Shown: positions 15,809 through 23,657 of the stretch, in pieces
Layout of the letters: each line of letters starts with the position of its first letter
Position numbering within the stretch: position 1 is the first letter of the stretch
Assembly: GCA_963812015.1 (NCBI GenBank)
Contig: CAWETI010000002.1
Location: forward strand, 992,001-1,056,000
DNA length: 64,000 nt
Direction of reading: 5' to 3'
DNA from: an uncultured delta proteobacterium
GTDB lineage: Bacteria > Desulfobacterota > Desulfobaccia > Desulfobaccales > 0-14-0-80-60-11
Program-made: the position numbers and the translations under genes
Notes under the pieces: model-generated
What the model saw: the letters and a program-made list of their open reading frames with translations, nothing else
Database searches by the model: none
What the model was told of the DNA's origin: nothing

Positions 15809-16504
15809 TTAATGCTCCGCTTGGTGCAATAGTTGTAGCGGATTAAGAATCGTAATTTGCCGCTTGGATACGGCAATCAGTCCCTCTTCTTGGAATTTTT
15901 TCAGCATTTCGCTCACGGTCTGCTGGGTGGAGCCGGTCATGGAGGCCAGTTGCTCCTGGGTCAGACTGATGGGGATGTGGGCGGGCTTAGCCCAAGAGTC
16001 CTCGTCCATAAGCTGGTCGTAACTCAGGTAAACCAGGAGCTTTGCCAGGCGGGTGCTCACGTCGCACACCATGAGGTTCTCGACCTGCTCCCCCAGGTAG
16101 CGGAGCCGCCGCCCCAGGACTTCGATGACCCTCCGGGCCAGAGGGTAATGGCTTGCCAGGAGGGCATCAAAGTTCTTTTTGCTGATCTCATAAAGCTTCC
16201 CCGGGGTAAGGGCCTGGGCGTTGGCTTTCCGGGGCCTGGCTTCCATCACTTCTGCCAGCCCGAAGAATTCTCCTTTGCGGCGCAGGAAAAATATCGGCTC
16301 TTTGCCGTCCAGGGTGATCTTGAAGATCTTGATGAGGCCGTTTTCCAGATAGAAGCAGGAATCGCCCGGGTCGCCTTCAAAAAAAACCATATCGTTTTTC
16401 TTCAAGTCCCGGCTCTTGGCCAGGGACATGAAGGCTTTCTTTTCAGCCGCCAGGCCGGCGAAAAAATCGTGCTCGCGCAGGTGCCAGGAGGTAGGCATAC
16501 GCAT
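15809..16504 (-). CDS. Crp/Fnr family transcriptional regulator
   Basis: FFEGDPGD, GEFFG, PRKANAQA, HTH LTQEQLASMTGSTQQTVSEML; lacks the FNR N-terminal Cys cluster. Confidence 0.93.
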   Translation of the reverse strand: MRMPTSWHLREHDFFAGLAAEKKAFMSLAKSRDLKKNDMVFFEGDPGDSCFYLENGLIKIFKITLDGKEPIFFLRRKGEFFGLAEVMEARPRKANAQALTPGKLYEISKKNFDALLASHYPLARRVIEVLGRRLRYLGEQVENLMVCDVSTRLAKLLVYLSYDQLMDEDSWAKPAHIPISLTQEQLASMTGSTQQTVSEMLKKFQEEGLIAVSKRQITILNPLQLLHQAEH

Positions 16505-16618
16505 CCTCTACCCTTATTATACAGTTTATCGCCCGTAGGTGAAAAAAGAACGAGGCGGATTCACGCCTCATTGAACGTGTTTCCGCCTCGCGGAGATGGG
16601 ATGATCACTTACAGGGCT

Positions 16619-16945
16619 TCAGGTGTCCAAGCGGTTTTTATATTTATAGGTGGTCACGTTGCCATAAATGTCGGTGCATTTCCAGGTGATGTCTTTTTTG
16701 CCCATGAAGGGTTTGAGCGTGGCCTTGTGATAGCCCAATTGATAAGGGATGCGGGTTTCCAAGGCATTGCGGGGGCAGGCCTTGATGCAGGACATGCAGT
16801 CCCAACAATCCCGGGTGCTCCGGCAGTAGGCCTTCATGGTCGCCTCATCCACGGCCATCAGGTTGCCGGGACAAATTTCCTCGCAGCATGATTCTTCCCG
16901 TCCCTCGCAGCCATTGCATTTGTCTAAGTCCACTCTGGGCGGCAT
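16619..16945 (-). CDS. AprB-like 2x[4Fe-4S] subunit (short form)
   Basis: CNGC..CEEICP and CWDCMSCIKACP with the AprB-typical Trp; 108 aa, lacks the long C-terminal tail. Confidence 0.85.
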   Translation of the reverse strand: MPPRVDLDKCNGCEGREESCCEEICPGNLMAVDEATMKAYCRSTRDCWDCMSCIKACPRNALETRIPYQLGYHKATLKPFMGKKDITWKCTDIYGNVTTYKYKNRLDT

Positions 16946-16991
16946 CTCTCTACCTCCTCGTCCCGTTTAGATAATCGCCAGCCACGGCAAG

Positions 16992-18770
16992 TCAGGGTTT
17001 ATAGCGGTCTCCCGGGACAATTTGCTCGTATGGCCGGGTGAAAGTCACTACTTCTCGCGTCTGCGGGTCTCTCCGGCTCTCCACGAAGCAGTCGAAGTTC
17101 TCGTTGTCCACCTCCGGATAGTCGGAGCGGGTTTGCCAACCTGCCCAACGGGTTTCCTTGCGAGCTTTTAAATGGTGACAGACGGCCTCGGACACGTCCA
17201 CCCGGTCCATGGTCTCGTGAGCCAGCATGAGATCGTGCAGGTCTTTGGCATAAATTAACTGAAATTGGTTCTGGAGCATCTTGATGTGTTTTAAGGCGTA
17301 GTCCAAGCGCTCCTCATTGGTCCGGTAAAATTGGGAAGTGCCCCCCGCATACTCGTCCATGAGGCGCTGGAGGCGTTCCCGCATTTCCAGGGGGGAGACC
17401 CCGTCAAAGTCGGCCCCGCGCAGGAGCGGGGCAAAAACCCTGGCCTTTTCAGATTCTACCTGGTGAAGGTCTAATTCCGGCAGGTCCAGACCTGCCAGGT
17501 AGTTCATGGCCCCCCGGGCCGCCAGTTTGCCTTCGGCGGCGCATCCCCCCACGAACTTGTTTGGGTTGCCTCCCGCGGTCTCACCCGCGGCAAATAGGCC
17601 TGGGACGGTGGTCATGCGGGTGAGATCCACCCAGAATCCCCCCATGGTGTGACCACCCACGATGTAGGGGTCGGAGCCATAAATCTCGATGGGCTCTTTG
17701 GTTACATCCTGACCCCGGCTGGCCAGGAAGAGCACAAAGGATGGGCGCTCGTTCAGGTAATCGGTCATCATGGCATCAACCAGTTTGGGGTCCATGTTGC
17801 GCGTGTCACAATAGGTCGGCCCCCGGCCAGCCAGCCATTCCTCCATGGGCGCGTTGGCCCGGATGTAGCGGGGCGCACTATCGCCACCCAGGTGGGAGTA
17901 GCGGGCCTGAAGGATTTTTTCGTCTTTGCAATTGATGATGGGGGCCTTATAACCCACCGAAATGGTATCTACCGGGCCGCAGAAGTCCTTGGTGCGAGTG
18001 GCCACCCAGCGCTGCTCCAGGGAACTCAATTCCGCTCCCTGGCGAAAGCCCATGGCGTAGCCGGAACCCACGCAATAGGGGCACATCCAGATCTGGTGAG
18101 CGCTGTCCGTGGCGTCAGCCGTATAGGACTTGTAAAGAGTGCCGGCGCCTCCCGTGGAAACGACTGTGGCTTTGGCCCGGAAGACATAAAACTTGCCGTC
18201 CCGGACTCCTAAGCCCATTGCTCCCACACAGCGTTCGCCCTCCATGAGGAGTCCGGTCCCGACAATCCGGTTGTAAACCACCGCCCCGGATGCGATGGCC
18301 TTTTCGGCCATGATGGGTTTGAGCTGCTCGCCATGGATGGAAATGTCCCATTTGCCCCGGTACTTGGTTTTGCCGTTTTCATCCCGGAGCAGGGGAAGCC
18401 CCCAGCGCTCCAGGTCATCCACGGCCTCATTGAGCTCCCTGGCGTTTGACAGAGCCAGATCTTCACGCAACGGGCCTCCTCCCACCTGGGAACGGGACCA
18501 GCGCACCAGATCCTCGGGAGTTTTGCCTTCGGGAATATAAGTGTTGATGGCGTCCATCCCCGCCGAGCAGGCTCCGGAGCGCACGATGTTGGCCTTTTCC
18601 ATAATGGTCACGTTAAGATTCGGGTTGATCTTTTTGGCTTCCACCGCCACAAAGCAGCCGGCATTACCCCCCCCAATGATGAGCAGATCCGTAGTAATAA
18701 TCTCCACCTGAACTTCCCCAAAGGTCTTCGGTAAAGCCTTACAAGCACGTTTGGCTCCGACGTTAGCCAT
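16992..18770 (-). CDS. AprA-like FAD flavoprotein (adenylylsulfate reductase alpha family, divergent)
   Basis: LIIGGGNAGC, EKANIVRSGA..AINTY, REDL, WMCPY..GSG, RTKD..GP, GGHT, RLQRLMDEYAGG, RKETRW. Confidence 0.88.
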   Translation of the reverse strand: MANVGAKRACKALPKTFGEVQVEIITTDLLIIGGGNAGCFVAVEAKKINPNLNVTIMEKANIVRSGACSAGMDAINTYIPEGKTPEDLVRWSRSQVGGGPLREDLALSNARELNEAVDDLERWGLPLLRDENGKTKYRGKWDISIHGEQLKPIMAEKAIASGAVVYNRIVGTGLLMEGERCVGAMGLGVRDGKFYVFRAKATVVSTGGAGTLYKSYTADATDSAHQIWMCPYCVGSGYAMGFRQGAELSSLEQRWVATRTKDFCGPVDTISVGYKAPIINCKDEKILQARYSHLGGDSAPRYIRANAPMEEWLAGRGPTYCDTRNMDPKLVDAMMTDYLNERPSFVLFLASRGQDVTKEPIEIYGSDPYIVGGHTMGGFWVDLTRMTTVPGLFAAGETAGGNPNKFVGGCAAEGKLAARGAMNYLAGLDLPELDLHQVESEKARVFAPLLRGADFDGVSPLEMRERLQRLMDEYAGGTSQFYRTNEERLDYALKHIKMLQNQFQLIYAKDLHDLMLAHETMDRVDVSEAVCHHLKARKETRWAGWQTRSDYPEVDNENFDCFVESRRDPQTREVVTFTRPYEQIVPGDRYKP

Positions 18771-18830
18771 AAAACCTCCTCGTTTTGATCCTCAGAAAGG
18801 CACTCCTGGCTCTAAAGGACGCACATGCGA

Positions 18831-19862
18831 TTAAGGGATTAACGAAAATGAAGTGATCTTCACCCCGACATATTGAAGCCCGATGATGATCAGAGCTATC
18901 CCGAAAAAAATCCTGAGATACTTGGGATCCACCGCCAAGGAAAGACGTCTTCCCAAACGGGCGCCGCAATATCCGCCGCACATGGCAAAAATCGCCAAGG
19001 GATAAATCACCGTTTCCGCCACACCTCTGACAATGAACTGGGAGCCGATATTGGCGACCTTGACGAAGTTCCCGGTTCCCACCGCCACTACCATGGGCAG
19101 CCCAAAGGCCGTATGGAGCATGGGAGTAAAAAGAAATCCACCGCCAACCCCGACGATCCCGGAGATAATCGCGATGAAAAAGTTGCCGATGCCGGGAGTT
19201 ATGATATCCGTGCGGTAGCGATGGCCCAGCCACTCGCCTTCGGCAATCCAAAACCCTCTCTTTTCGGTTTTAATCCACGCGGCGCCCTCATCCTTTGGGG
19301 GGAAGATGGTGCGGTACAGCATCGAGCCGGCGGCCAAGAAAACCAAAATGGCAAAATAGAGTTGGAGGGTTTTGGCGGAAATCCCCAAGGAGATAAAGGC
19401 TCCCACGGCAGCCCCCAGGAGCCCGGCGATCATCATGGGAATTGCGACTTTCATATTGGGAGTCCTTTTCTGCAAATGAACCCAGGCGGCAAACAAGCCG
19501 ATGATGGCGGCAGCCATGCTGTTGGTTCCCAGGGCTACTTTAACGGGTAGTCCCAACCATAGGGTATACAGGGGCACGGAAAACAGGCTGATAAAAGCGC
19601 CCACCGCCCCGCCCATGAAACCCGCCAGCAAACCGACGCCAATACCCATGATCGGGTCGACGTCCACCGTCCCCCACTTTGGGTGTGACCAATGCACCAC
19701 CCAGGAAGGGGAGACTGATTCCTTGATCAACAGCATAATGAGAAGAACCGTGACTCCCCAAAAGAGGTAATTACTCGTGGATTTCTCCCCCAGAAACGCT
19801 CTAATTCCACCGCCTAGAGAAAATTGCTTTTCCAGGGCTTTTTGAGCAACTCCATTACCCAT
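18831..19862 (-). CDS. TauE/SafE (TSUP) family transporter
   Basis: Multiple TM helices; GIVGVGGGFLFTPML, VAVGT repeat motifs. Confidence 0.88.
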   Translation of the reverse strand: MGNGVAQKALEKQFSLGGGIRAFLGEKSTSNYLFWGVTVLLIMLLIKESVSPSWVVHWSHPKWGTVDVDPIMGIGVGLLAGFMGGAVGAFISLFSVPLYTLWLGLPVKVALGTNSMAAAIIGLFAAWVHLQKRTPNMKVAIPMMIAGLLGAAVGAFISLGISAKTLQLYFAILVFLAAGSMLYRTIFPPKDEGAAWIKTEKRGFWIAEGEWLGHRYRTDIITPGIGNFFIAIISGIVGVGGGFLFTPMLHTAFGLPMVVAVGTGNFVKVANIGSQFIVRGVAETVIYPLAIFAMCGGYCGARLGRRLSLAVDPKYLRIFFGIALIIIGLQYVGVKITSFSLIP

Positions 19863-19909: not shown

Positions 19910-19952
19910 TTTATAACCGCCGGGTAAAATCGCTTCTATCGTCTGCCTGATA
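19910..19952 (-). promoter_or_regulatory. Candidate class II Crp/Fnr-activated promoter of the tauE-aprAB-like operon
   Basis: Palindrome TATC-N8-GATA at 19937-19952, centred about 41.5 nt upstream of the start predicted from a TATAAA -10 at 19910-19915. Confidence 0.45.
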
Positions 19953-20379
19953 AAATGAAAAAATAGTAAAATTTAGTGGAAAATCTGCCGGGAAGGGCTA
20001 GTCGGTGGGCTTGAAAGGTAGGAACTGGCAGGAAAGTCGGACTATTTTTACCGTCCCACCCTTATTGAACAAAATTTACAAGATGTTCCATGGGGAGAAT
20101 TTCATGGCTTGAACCACCGGGCTTGCCGGCTCGGCGAAGATTCTTTCCCGGGTGTGTCTCTCCCCCGCCTGGGCTGCGGATGGCGGCTCTGCACTGATCT
20201 TTCCATTTTATATAACTTGCCACTATACGCCCTTTCGCTAATTTTTTTATATGGTTCGTATATTGGAACCCGTGCAACTGGAATTGGTAATGCTCATTTC
20301 CATGGAGATCATAGTGACTTTGGGGGAGAGTCCTGTTCTGAGGTTTCCGGTTCGGGCTTGGAAGAAAGGGACGTGGGGC

Positions 20380-20778
20380 GGGGGCCGGCCAGGGGCGGGA
20401 GGTCCTTACCTTCAAGGTGGGCCCGGCCCTCCCGGGCGAGAGAGGCCAGAAACCAGGCCACCTCCTGGGGGACCGGTCAGAGGGGCGGCATGGAGCATCA
20501 CCCGCTTGAGGTATTCAATCAGACGTTCCCCGTGCTCCAGGGCTGTCCGGCGGGGTGATGGACGGCCTCCCCAAAAGCGGCTTTACTTGCGGCCAGGCCG
20601 TAGATTTCCAGCTCTTTACCGACCTGCCCTCCCAGTCCTGTCCCACCAAAATGAAATCCCGGCAATTGGTCACCAGGACGAGGCGGTAGCGGCCCCAATA
20701 ACGGGTGACCTGCTCTCCTGCCGCGGTGACCCAGGCACCGTTTTTGGTGGGCTTAACTTCCATCACCTCCCTGGCCAT
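20380..20778 (-). pseudogene. Frameshifted fragment of a type ISP-like restriction-modification enzyme
   Basis: Across frames reads EVKPT..AWVTAAGEQVTRYWGRY..VLVTNCRDF, ELEIYGLAASKAAF, HGERLIEYLKRVMLHAAPL, EVAWFLAS; several indels. Confidence 0.6.
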
Positions 20779-20903: not shown

Positions 20904-20980
20904 TGGTCGGGACGAGAGGATTTGAACCTCCGACCCCCTGAACCCCATTCAGGTGCGCTACCAGTCTGCGCCACGTCCCG
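20904..20980 (-). tRNA. tRNA-Pro(GGG)
   Basis: CGGGACGTGGCGCAGACTGGTAGCGCACCTGAATGGGGTTCAGGGGGTCGGAGGTTCAAATCCTCTCGTCCCGACCA; 77 nt cloverleaf with encoded CCA. Confidence 0.97.
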
Positions 20981-21219
20981 ACAACGAGGTAATATATCAA
21001 CTGGAATTTTTCCTGTCAATTGCCGGGGCCATTTCTATGCCCGGCCGCCGTTTTTTCCGGTATTCTTCCCTTGGCCAAAAACGGAGGCAGAAAGCGCGCC
21101 GAAAAGCGGTTGAGATTTATGAACAAACCTGTTAATTTTAAAAGGTTGCCCCGGTCCCAAACGAAATCCTCGCAAAAGTCTGGAACCGGGGAGGCCACCT
21201 TGAAGGAAGGGAGAGTTTG

Positions 21220-23387: not shown

Positions 23388-23657
23388 ATGACACTAAATG
23401 AATACCGCCAGAAAATTTTTGAGCGGGTTCTTCATTCCAATAACAAGAATGAAGTCTTACAAATATTAAAAGAAGCAAAAACTGTATTAATAGAATCGGA
23501 AGTTTCCGAAATATCGACCCGTAATTTTTGGATAAATCTATATGAAGATTTAGATAATAAGCAAAAACTTATTTGTGAAAAAGTAGCAGTCGGTGCTCTT
23601 AGCGATATTATTGCGGCTGCTCAGGAGGTAATAGCCAAAAACATCAAGCAATCATAA
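23388..23657 (+). CDS. AT-rich hypothetical helical protein
   Basis: 89 aa ORF with AAGGA RBS; atypically low GC. Confidence 0.65.
   Translation: MTLNEYRQKIFERVLHSNNKNEVLQILKEAKTVLIESEVSEISTRNFWINLYEDLDNKQKLICEKVAVGALSDIIAAAQEVIAKNIKQS

Follow-up and report, generated by a model that had tools for sequence, protein, structure and literature searches.

A putative accessory import-and-reduce operon with an AprAB-like enzyme in an uncultured sulfate-reducing delta proteobacterium

What does a second enzyme resembling adenylyl-sulfate reductase do in a sulfate reducer, when its genes stand beside those for a permease and a regulator, with no gene for sulfate activation among them? This question is raised by a locus in a 64,000-nucleotide stretch of the genome of an uncultured member of the Desulfobaccales (contig CAWETI010000002.1, positions 992,001 to 1,056,000; hereafter, the window). 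Four co-directional open reading frames (ORFs) on the minus strand, separated by gaps of 60, 46 and 114 bp, encode a TauE-family permease, an AprA-like flavin adenine dinucleotide (FAD) subunit, an AprB-like ferredoxin subunit and a Crp-family regulator (Table 1), confirming the four-gene unit described in a previous sequence-only reading of the window. Our analysis suggests, with confidence and doubt in about equal measure, that these genes form an accessory, self-regulated import-and-reduce operon that would release sulfite from an imported, pre-activated sulfuryl compound. External adenosine 5'-phosphosulfate (APS) or a close nucleoside 5'-phosphosulfate, and not 3'-phosphoadenosine 5'-phosphosulfate (PAPS), would be the most likely substrate.

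Organization of the module and its recurrence in related loci

The permease matched PF01925 at 137.8 bits (cut-off, 32.6) over residues 74‒330 and profile positions 2‒236 of 237, and it is 67% identical to the TauE in the equivalent position of five Nitratidesulfovibrio-type loci; no solved-structure relative of the TauE protein was found. The Pfam domains of the AprA-like protein are FAD_binding_2 and Succ_DH_flav_C and that of the AprB-like protein is Fer4, while the regulator matched PF00027 (cNMP_binding) at 76.2 bits and PF13545 (HTH_Crp_2) at 66.1 bits. Because a terminator-like hairpin and a promoter-like match separate the AprB-like gene from crp, the likely transcription units are tauE-aprA-aprB and, separately, crp.

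The genome (3.96 Mb in 6 contigs) carries a complete canonical cluster on another contig, composed of sat, aprB (147 amino acids, the long form), aprA (654 amino acids; 927 bits on TIGR02061), qmoA, qmoB and qmoC, and a stand-alone APS kinase is encoded elsewhere. The organism is an ordinary sulfate reducer, and the window module is extra to its normal sulfate-reduction genes. Because the full sat-aprBA-qmoABC cluster stands elsewhere in the genome, the module can be called accessory, as had been proposed. A Pfam scan of 56 further ORFs in the window detected no sat, cysDN, cysC or qmo gene, in agreement with the earlier reading; the absence of aprM, for which we know of no Pfam model, is read solely from there being no unexplained membrane ORF beside the module.

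A genome scan yielded 79 related loci, mostly from Desulfovibrionales, Desulfobulbales and other Desulfobacterota, together with metagenome-assembled genomes (MAGs) of Nitrospirota, Acidobacteriota and Bacillota. Five were dropped (two from Desulforudis at 42% identity, a third locus at 46% and two in which the gene was too incomplete), giving 75 rows including the window, of which 57 were informative, with at least 2.5 kb of sequence upstream and at least 1.5 kb downstream. An importer adjoined the AprA-like gene at all 57 loci, belonging to the DASS family (Na_sulph_symp) at 29, to the TTT family (TctCBA) at 22 and to TauE at 5, with DASS and TTT together at 1. The AprB-like gene followed the AprA-like gene at 57/57 loci, and a Crp-family gene was present within 56/57. 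These frequencies indicate that the four-gene arrangement is not due to chance, and this neighbourhood survey, which the sequence-only reading had suggested, upholds the tie of the enzyme to an importer and a local regulator. TTT systems need a binding protein and function as uptake systems. Both the pocket residues of the enzyme and the operator described below were alike whichever importer family was present. The genes flanking the module in Bilophila, Desulfovibrio piger and Nitratidesulfovibrio were unrelated, and no sulfur-metabolism gene was found among them. The working unit is importer, enzyme and regulator, with no activating enzyme encoded.

Additional genes were detected at some of these loci. 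A gene for an HdrA/QmoB-like protein with an MvhD domain follows the AprB-like gene at 19/57 loci, and in some it is followed in turn by HdrBC-like or AsrAB-like electron-input genes. At six Desulfocapsaceae-type loci (L043, L048, L050, L054, L058 and L059), the AprB-like and HdrA-like genes are followed by those for two Fer4 proteins and for an AsrA/AsrB-type NAD-binding 2Fe-2S flavoprotein, which suggests that in these lineages the electron supply of the enzyme is NAD(P)H-linked; a rubrerythrin gene on the opposite strand comes next in L043, L048, L050 and L054. At L030, L039 and L075, a Sulfotransfer_3 gene lies 3.7‒6.1 kb from the AprA-like gene and HdrA-like and HdrB-like genes are also present, with a Fer4 HdrC-like gene in addition at L030 and L039. 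This proximity may reflect a link to sulfated metabolites or mere chance. A cycle in which a sulfotransferase would form PAPS from a sulfate ester and adenosine 3',5'-bisphosphate, for subsequent reduction, was set aside, since a sulfotransferase lies near the module at these three loci only and the invariant D142 of the enzyme (see below) speaks against PAPS. Two loci from Desulforudis MAGs (L082 and L083) hold two AprA-like/AprB-like pairs, set head to tail and with their gene order reversed (A-B ... B-A), and an HdrA-like gene after them; their proteins are 42% identical to the window protein and belong to a different branch, next to canonical AprA.

We then analysed the regions upstream of the operons. 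The palindrome TATCG-N6-CGATA occurred exactly in 31/57 operon-upstream regions and with no more than one mismatch in 41/57, against a maximum of 3 in 20 shuffles, and it was present with all three importer types. A position weight matrix (PWM) was built from 31 distinct sites, and the whole genome was scanned. The window operator received the best score of the genome (26.6), and no site other than the operon's own scored above the training range. Because the next matches score no more than 18.5 and the next three sit inside ORFs, the regulator appears to be local to the operon, and no additional regulated gene offers a clue to its function. A TATAAA element at 19910‒19915, identified by eye, puts the centre of the palindrome at approximately −41.5. 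This is the usual position of a class II Crp/Fnr activator site, and the arrangement may represent a candidate class II activator geometry.

The nearest solved relatives of the regulator are cyclic AMP receptors of the Mycobacterium tuberculosis type (approximately 77 bits). A partial phosphate-binding cassette, FGLxE-x6-R-K, is conserved in 53 members of this Crp family, which suggests an anionic effector. Oxygen sensing of the Fnr type was rejected: the N-terminal Cys cluster that holds a [4Fe-4S] centre in sensors such as Escherichia coli Fnr is absent, the first Cys being residue 50 and the only other one residue 147. The sequence-only reading called the module inducible, which goes further than the regulator and the candidate operator allow; no RNA run with the module sequence was listed, the matches being DNA contigs of sediment, soil and other metagenomes.

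Lineage and nucleotide pocket of the AprA-like protein

The AprA-like protein scored 377.7 bits against the canonical AprA model TIGR02061, far from the cut-off of 641.75, and 554.1 bits against NF005331, the NCBIfam model for the short-form adenylyl-sulfate reductase alpha subunit, only 3 bits under the cut-off of 557; the latter match was full-length (residues 19‒583; profile positions 2‒556 of 563). Its best solved match was the alpha subunit of the PAPS reductase of Methanothermococcus thermolithotrophicus (MtPAPSR; 8A8O_A, 478.9 bits), followed by Archaeoglobus fulgidus AprA (1JNR_A, 335.3 bits) and Megalodesulfovibrio gigas AprA (222 bits). The AprB-like protein likewise remained under the cut-off of its model (TIGR02060; 82 versus 135.65 bits) and matched the MtPAPSR beta subunit at 59.7 bits. 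Its two Cys clusters and the Cys-Trp of the electron path (W48) align to 1JNR_B, and the C-terminal tail that wraps AprA is absent. It aligned solely to residues 1‒104 of the 150-residue A. fulgidus AprB, in agreement with its previous description as the short form.

A maximum-likelihood tree was constructed from 52 rows: the window protein, 20 related-locus proteins picked from 79, the canonical AprA of the genome, 8 outgroup flavoproteins, and representatives, namely 22 full-length 50%-identity representatives out of 150 listed. The window clade (20 rows) was monophyletic with support of 96/99, as were canonical AprA (100/100) and the MtPAPSR group (90/97), although the branching order of the three was weak (82 in the SH-aLRT test). 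Representatives of the MtPAPSR group scored 707‒716 bits to 8A8O, compared with 479 for the window protein. By scores and tree, the AprA-like protein belongs to a third lineage, apart from both canonical AprA and the M. thermolithotrophicus enzyme. The previous judgement that it is not a canonical dissimilatory AprA thus stands, and the phylogeny check that had been proposed showed no nesting in a characterised APS reductase clade. The description as an undescribed third class did not survive comparison with the literature: AprAB-like paralogues have been named in the DiSCo study (PMC8477390), one of them is a PAPS reductase (PMC10322725), and the copy of the Sat-less Bilophila has been discussed as a reductase of external APS (PMC11610557).

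Next, we mapped the pocket residues by hand from HMMER alignments, taking their roles from Meyer and Kuever (2008, PMC2211403) and from PMC10322725, and counted conservation over the 20 clade rows. All motifs named previously were located in the 592-residue translation (ACSAGMDAIN at 67‒76, AINTY at 74‒78, WDISIHGEQ at 141‒149, RTKD at 259‒262 and GGHT at 372‒375). Of the dissimilatory counterparts quoted in that reading, alignment with 1JNR_A gave GAVAQGLSAINTY for the first and WQIMIHGES for the second, the quoted WQIMINGES being one letter off. The catalytic residues N76, W228, R259 and H374 correspond to A. fulgidus N74, W234, R265 and H398 and were invariant (20/20), so the apparent catalytic set is retained as claimed. 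D337 (A. fulgidus D361) and the adenine-clamp residue R304 (R317) are also kept and invariant, as are W141 (W144) and F406 (F448), while V267 (V273) is V or I in the clade. In 38 outgroup flavoproteins, the Asn position held N in 8, the His position held H in 7 and the clamp position held R in 2, and R was not among the six commonest residues where the catalytic Arg stands; the conservation of these residues in the clade is meaningful because they are rare in the outgroup.

In contrast to these retained residues, nine pocket positions of A. fulgidus AprA are replaced, each by a residue invariant in 20/20 clade members: Y95 by W91, E141 by R138, Q145 by D142, F261 by W255, G274 by D268, W276 by I270, F277 by S271, L278 by V272 and H446 by N404. 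Apart from R138, these residues make up a pocket set of the clade's own (W91, D142, W255, D268, I270, S271, V272 and N404 in 20/20), and the canonical and Mt-type groups each carry sets of their own. The MtPAPSR segment K120-R121-S122 corresponds to K140-W141-D142 in the window protein, and position 140 varies among clade members (K, A, G or Q). Our reading is that the flavin-N5/sulfite chemistry and an adenine-like handle have probably been kept while the ribose/phosphate surroundings have been rebuilt. At the A. fulgidus Q145 position, Gln is said to clash with a 3'-phosphate (PMC10322725). The invariant Asp at this position likewise speaks against a 3'-phosphate, suggesting APS over PAPS.

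Hosts, candidate mechanism and rival explanations

Fifty module-bearing genomes, chosen from 75, were searched for Sat, APS kinase and DsrA. Sat was found in 42 and not found in 8; APS kinase (E ≤1e-10) was found in 36 and not found in 14. DsrA was present in 48/50, including six of the eight without Sat, so that the hosts nearly always encode a sulfite reductase that would use the product. The hosts without a detected APS kinase include two isolates, D. piger ATCC 29098, in which Sat and canonical AprA are present, and Bilophila wadsworthia ATCC 49260, and these isolates are the firm cases among the module hosts. In three Bilophila genomes, Sat, CysD, APS kinase, canonical AprA and QmoC were looked for and none was found. 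Because hosts without APS kinase or Sat keep the module, the enzyme cannot rely on endogenous PAPS in general, or on endogenous APS in Bilophila. The persistence of the module in Bilophila genomes unable to make APS or PAPS is what an import reading predicts, in support of the previous claim that the sulfur compound is imported, and this claim is the best-supported frame for the module.

The mechanism that we infer, including its transport direction, sulfite as product, substrate identity, electron donor and induction, would be as follows. The TauE/TSUP permease would bring into the cytoplasm an anionic sulfur compound already bearing an activated sulfuryl group. The AprA-like/AprB-like enzyme would take two electrons via its two [4Fe-4S] clusters, and N5 of the reduced FAD would attack the sulfuryl sulfur; the carrier moiety would leave, and the FAD-sulfite adduct would yield sulfite for reduction by DsrAB. 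The electrons may be supplied by HdrA-like modules in other lineages; in Bilophila, Qmo cannot be their source. The Crp-family protein would sense the compound or a derivative of it and activate the operon from the TATCG-N6-CGATA site near −41.5. Within this frame we lean, by no great distance, to an APS-like nucleotide, given the retained adenine clamp and the case against PAPS, while a non-nucleotide sulfuryl donor stays well in play because of the importer families and the rebuilt ribose site. The published growth of B. wadsworthia with APS (see below) counts in favour of the main reading. The non-APS substrate of the sequence-only reading is not borne out as written: the invariant clamp Arg, which is specific to the AprA family (2/38 in the outgroup), favours a nucleotide-type substrate, though the ribose/phosphate contacts are remodelled.

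Several observations weigh against import of an APS-like nucleotide. Free APS is expected to be scarce outside cells, and the DASS, TTT and TSUP carriers are not, to our knowledge, transporters of nucleotides. The DASS protein of the module is weakly nearest to the dicarboxylate carrier VcINDY (73.9 bits). Comparison with solved structures was otherwise uninformative on transporter specificity, the TctC of the module matching solely uncharacterised or aromatic/dicarboxylate binders. Sat is present in 42/50 hosts, including this genome, where the enzyme could use endogenous APS, and the genomes counted are mostly MAGs of unknown completeness and mutually kin, so that the counts describe the sample and carry no statistical test. 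Eight channel-lining positions differ from canonical AprA, including the ribose/phosphate contacts Y95, G274 and H446, although these channel residues are strictly conserved in the canonical AprA of sulfate reducers and sulfur oxidisers (PMC2211403); because of these differences the true substrate may not be APS. The growth of Bilophila with APS, described below, was recorded in rich medium at 10 mM APS and was not linked to these genes (PMC11610557). The AprAB homologues of Taurinivorans muris, which may or may not belong to the clade, were transcribed, but no protein was detected on taurine, sulfolactate or thiosulfate (PMC10507020).

One rival, which overlaps the import-and-reduce frame and was the main idea of the sequence-only reading, is that the enzyme reduces an imported sulfuryl compound other than a nucleotide. 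Candidates would be organosulfate esters, S-sulfonates (S-sulfocysteine, for instance), carboxylated sulfonates, and thiosulfate or a polythionate. The carriers belong to families that serve small di-anions and sulfonated carboxylates: SauXYZ, a TTT system, binds sulfoacetate (PMC10413351), and SlcHFG is a putative sulfolactate importer (PMC10507020). No activation gene is linked to the module. The invariant D142, D268 and N404 and the additional W91 and W255 replace the ribose/phosphate contacts of AprA. In its full form, this explanation would make the module a respiratory reductase for a new class of electron acceptor, passing sulfite on to Dsr at no expense of ATP, both in sulfate reducers and in gut sulfidogens that lack Sat, such as Bilophila, with the invariant Asp pair and extra Trp residues as the site for a new leaving group; we offer it tentatively. 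Against it, the family-specific clamp Arg is kept, together with V/I267 and F406, the counterparts of V273 and F448. On chemical reasoning, attack by flavin N5 requires a good leaving group, which is absent in alkyl sulfates and C-sulfonates. The absence of T. muris protein on the three sulfur compounds named above also counts against it, and the known sulfonate pathways of Bilophila rely on other enzymes. On balance, we regard a non-nucleotide substrate as doubtful.

Alternatively, the enzyme could be a second APS reductase isoenzyme for endogenous APS: the carrier would import sulfate, thiosulfate or sulfite, Sat would make APS, and a Qmo-independent donor would supply electrons under conditions sensed by the Crp protein. 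The presence of Sat in this genome and most module hosts, and the retained catalytic residues and adenine clamp, agree with this role. DASS is the Na_sulph_symp family, TSUP and DASS proteins are candidate sulfate carriers of sulfate reducers (PMC5840216), and the HdrA/QmoB-like gene with MvhD in 19/57 loci recalls QmoAB-HdrBC arrangements. However, the three Bilophila genomes keep an intact module (78% identity, all pocket invariants) without Sat, CysD or APS kinase, and five further module genomes showed no Sat. The TTT systems at 22/57 loci are not known sulfate carriers, and the pocket departs from canonical AprA at positions otherwise strictly conserved (PMC2211403). The operator common to hosts with and without Sat argues for a single effector. 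These considerations make an endogenous-APS isoenzyme unlikely.

The enzyme is very improbably a PAPS reductase of the M. thermolithotrophicus type acting in assimilatory sulfate reduction. MtPAPSR is its best solved match, and the two have in common the short AprB form, R138 (R118 in MtPAPSR) and, in the window protein, K140 (K120); APS kinase is present in this genome, and an assimilatory role was proposed for AprAB-like paralogues (PMC8477390). Nevertheless, it lies outside the MtPAPSR group in the tree and far under the scores of that group to 8A8O, W141 and the invariant D142 stand in place of R121 and S122, where the Asp would repel a 3'-phosphate, and K140 is not conserved. In addition, APS kinase was not found in 14/50 module genomes, and sulfide-producing hosts need no assimilatory reduction, as is established physiology.

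An oxidative role, in which imported or internal sulfite and AMP would be converted to APS for detoxification, disproportionation or as an activated sulfate donor, deserves little credence: canonical AprAB is reversible (PMC2211403), TauE is named as a sulfite exporter family and sulfotransferase genes lie near the module at three loci, but Sat-less hosts could not process APS further, the Dsr-bearing hosts respire sulfite and would find its oxidation counter-productive, TTT systems import, and MtPAPSR showed no reverse reaction (PMC10322725).

If external APS is the substrate of the import-and-reduce operon, the module would provide a cross-feeding route for activated sulfate that spares the ATP cost of activation; if the substrate is otherwise, it would represent a new respiratory substrate for sulfidogens. 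An annotation as adenylyl-sulfate reductase within the window clade should not count as evidence of sulfate reduction in metagenomes.

Surroundings of the module and comparison with known systems

Table 1. Module genes, local elements and the adjacent tRNA gene in the window
Feature	Position	Strand	Basis or remark
TSUP/TauE-family permease, 343 amino acids	18831-19862	minus	PF01925; first operon gene, presumed importer
AprA-like FAD subunit, 592 amino acids, third AprA lineage	16992-18770	minus	NF005331/TIGR02061 scores, tree, 8A8O_A match
AprB-like di-[4Fe-4S] ferredoxin subunit, 108 amino acids, without C-terminal tail	16619-16945	minus	TIGR02060, 1JNR_B alignment
Crp-family transcription regulator, 231 amino acids, apparently local	15809-16504	minus	cNMP_binding and HTH_Crp_2
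Candidate operator palindrome TATCAGGCAGACGATA	19934-19955, core 19937-19952	minus	82 bp upstream of the TauE start codon
Terminator-like hairpin in the AprB-like/crp gap	16549-16572	minus	Consensus match only: 9-bp stem with 5 GC pairs, then CTTTTTTCAC
Sigma-70-like promoter match before crp	16516-16545	minus	TTTTCA-18-TATAAT, 10/12 positions; consensus match only
tRNA-Pro(GGG), edge of the variable region holding the module	20904-20980	minus	ARAGORN and Rfam, 60.1 bits

The module is patchily distributed among relatives. The AprA-like protein was found in 3/36 genomes of the family, was not found in 17 other genomes of the genus and was found in 0/14 of the sister family, and its neighbours in the tree are a Desulfurivibrio MAG and Desulfovibrionales. 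Three same-genus genomes have the region of elongation factor G (EF-G) and tRNA-Pro in common with the window, and synteny stops at the tRNA; a clean empty site was not demonstrable, as the same-genus DNA beyond the tRNA has its matches dispersed over this genome. The patchy distribution is compatible with horizontal spread of the module without proving it.

Between tauE and tRNA-Pro, approximately 1 kb (19863‒20903) holds short ORFs only, such as an 87-residue ORF at 20515‒20778 (minus strand); the three ORFs of this interval gave no Pfam match, and tblastn with all neighbourhood proteins, including DASS and TTT, found no remnant of a replaced transporter. Directly beside the tRNA, an EF-G-family GTPase of 694 amino acids with a TTG start is encoded at 21217‒23301 (plus strand). 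Its gene has 84‒91% DNA identity to sequences in 4/5 same-genus genomes searched; second, weaker matches there point to a pair of EF-G paralogues, of which it would be one. It is followed at 23388‒27416 by six ORFs (89‒341 amino acids) without a Pfam match, the first of which are AT-richer than their surroundings.

On the other side of the module, 6405‒15445 is a dense signalling block comprising a response regulator, two PAS histidine kinases, a hybrid kinase (13493‒15445, on the module's strand and directly after crp) and two paralogous ACT-domain proteins of approximately 340 amino acids (7353‒8366 and 12349‒13395); none of these genes stands beside the EF-G/tRNA-Pro region in the three same-genus genomes. 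At 32‒6209 (plus strand), a fused flavoprotein of 1318 amino acids combines NfnB/GltD-like Fer4_20 and Pyr_redox_2 domains, a second FAD domain and a C-terminal Fer4 domain. Genes for an MvhD/FlpD protein, a MetV-like protein (DUF5981) and MetF come next, and the whole looks like an Hdr/Mvh-linked methylene-tetrahydrofolate reductase cluster.

Finally, we compared the module with known systems. Compared with dissimilatory AprBA (A. fulgidus 1JNR/2FJA; M. gigas 3GYX), the window enzyme has the same fold and cofactor-binding motifs, and it keeps the counterparts of W144, V273, D361, F448 and the Arg317 clamp together with the AprB Cys clusters and Trp48. It differs in that the AprA-like protein is approximately 60 residues shorter, with gaps in the capping and helical parts, in the replacement of Y95, E141, Q145, F261, G274, W276, F277, L278 and H446, in the loss of the AprB tail, and in having no linkage to sat or qmo.

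The class of paralogues to which the enzyme belongs is already in print, having been named in the DiSCo study of 2021 and in the Bilophila study of 2024. AprAB-like paralogues were delineated in 63 organisms by Neukirchen and Sousa (2021, PMC8477390), who suggested that they act in assimilation. The likeness, judged by description, lies in a tail-less AprB-like protein, an AprA-like protein whose capping and helical domains contain gaps, an occurrence also in Deltaproteobacteria and Nitrospira, and sodium:sulfate symporters that are sometimes nearby. Their paralogues were treated as one group, assimilatory and mostly from Clostridia with sat, cysC and asr as neighbours, whereas the window protein belongs to a separate branch centred on Desulfobacterota, with its own pocket, importer set, regulator and operator.

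MtPAPSR prefers PAPS, with 0.114 units compared with 0.007 for APS (Jespersen and Wagner 2023, PMC10322725). As in the window enzyme, its alpha subunit is short (about 570‒590 amino acids) and its beta subunit tail-less (104‒108 amino acids), the catalytic Asn, Trp, Arg and His are present with a proposed FAD-N5 mechanism, and Arg occupies the R118/R138 position. The lineages are different, with R121, S122 and the T, G, Q, A and K of MtPAPSR corresponding to W141, D142, V267, D268, V272, D337 and N404 of the window protein, and the proposed 3'-phosphate loop (Lys120, Arg121 and Ser122; PMC10322725) is not matched by K140, W141 and D142. The MtPAPSR genes accompany those of ATP sulfurylase, APS kinase and PAP phosphatase, whereas the genes of the window enzyme stand with those of an importer and a Crp regulator, and the hosts of its clade are often without APS kinase.

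The closest counterparts are found in gut bacteria. Orphan AprAB in hosts unable to activate sulfate has been flagged as unexplained in recent papers on Bilophila and Taurinivorans (PMC11610557, PMC10507020), a literature in which the hydrogen sulfide of these bacteria is tied to inflammation. AprAB homologues are present without Sat or QmoAB in T. muris (Ye et al. 2023, PMC10507020). Sayavedra et al. (2024, PMC11610557) reported a putative AprAB in B. wadsworthia, which lacks Sat, proposed that the bacterium draws on APS that Bacteroides releases, and observed that 10 mM APS improved its growth over that in basal broth; growth, and not the enzyme, is the ground for this proposal. In the literature searched, no assay was found for any enzyme of the window clade, and subscription journals and supplements (DiSCo Table S9; Sayavedra Tables S2‒S5) may hold more. 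As far as the passages of PMC8477390, PMC10322725, PMC11610557 and PMC10507020 go, the separate lineage, pocket signature, obligatory importer linkage and operator are not described there.

L044, the copy of B. wadsworthia ATCC 49260, shares 78% identity with the window protein, lies inside the window clade and carries the same pocket residues. Its locus order, TctCBA-AprA-AprB-Crp, matches that of the window with a TTT importer in place of TauE, although the Bilophila host is without Sat, APS kinase and QmoC and the window genome has all three. The Bilophila genes and the copy in a sediment-type sulfate reducer represent one conserved module of importer, distinct AprAB lineage, Crp-family regulator and defined candidate operator, which turns an annotation puzzle into a testable system for the question of orphan AprAB in sulfidogens.

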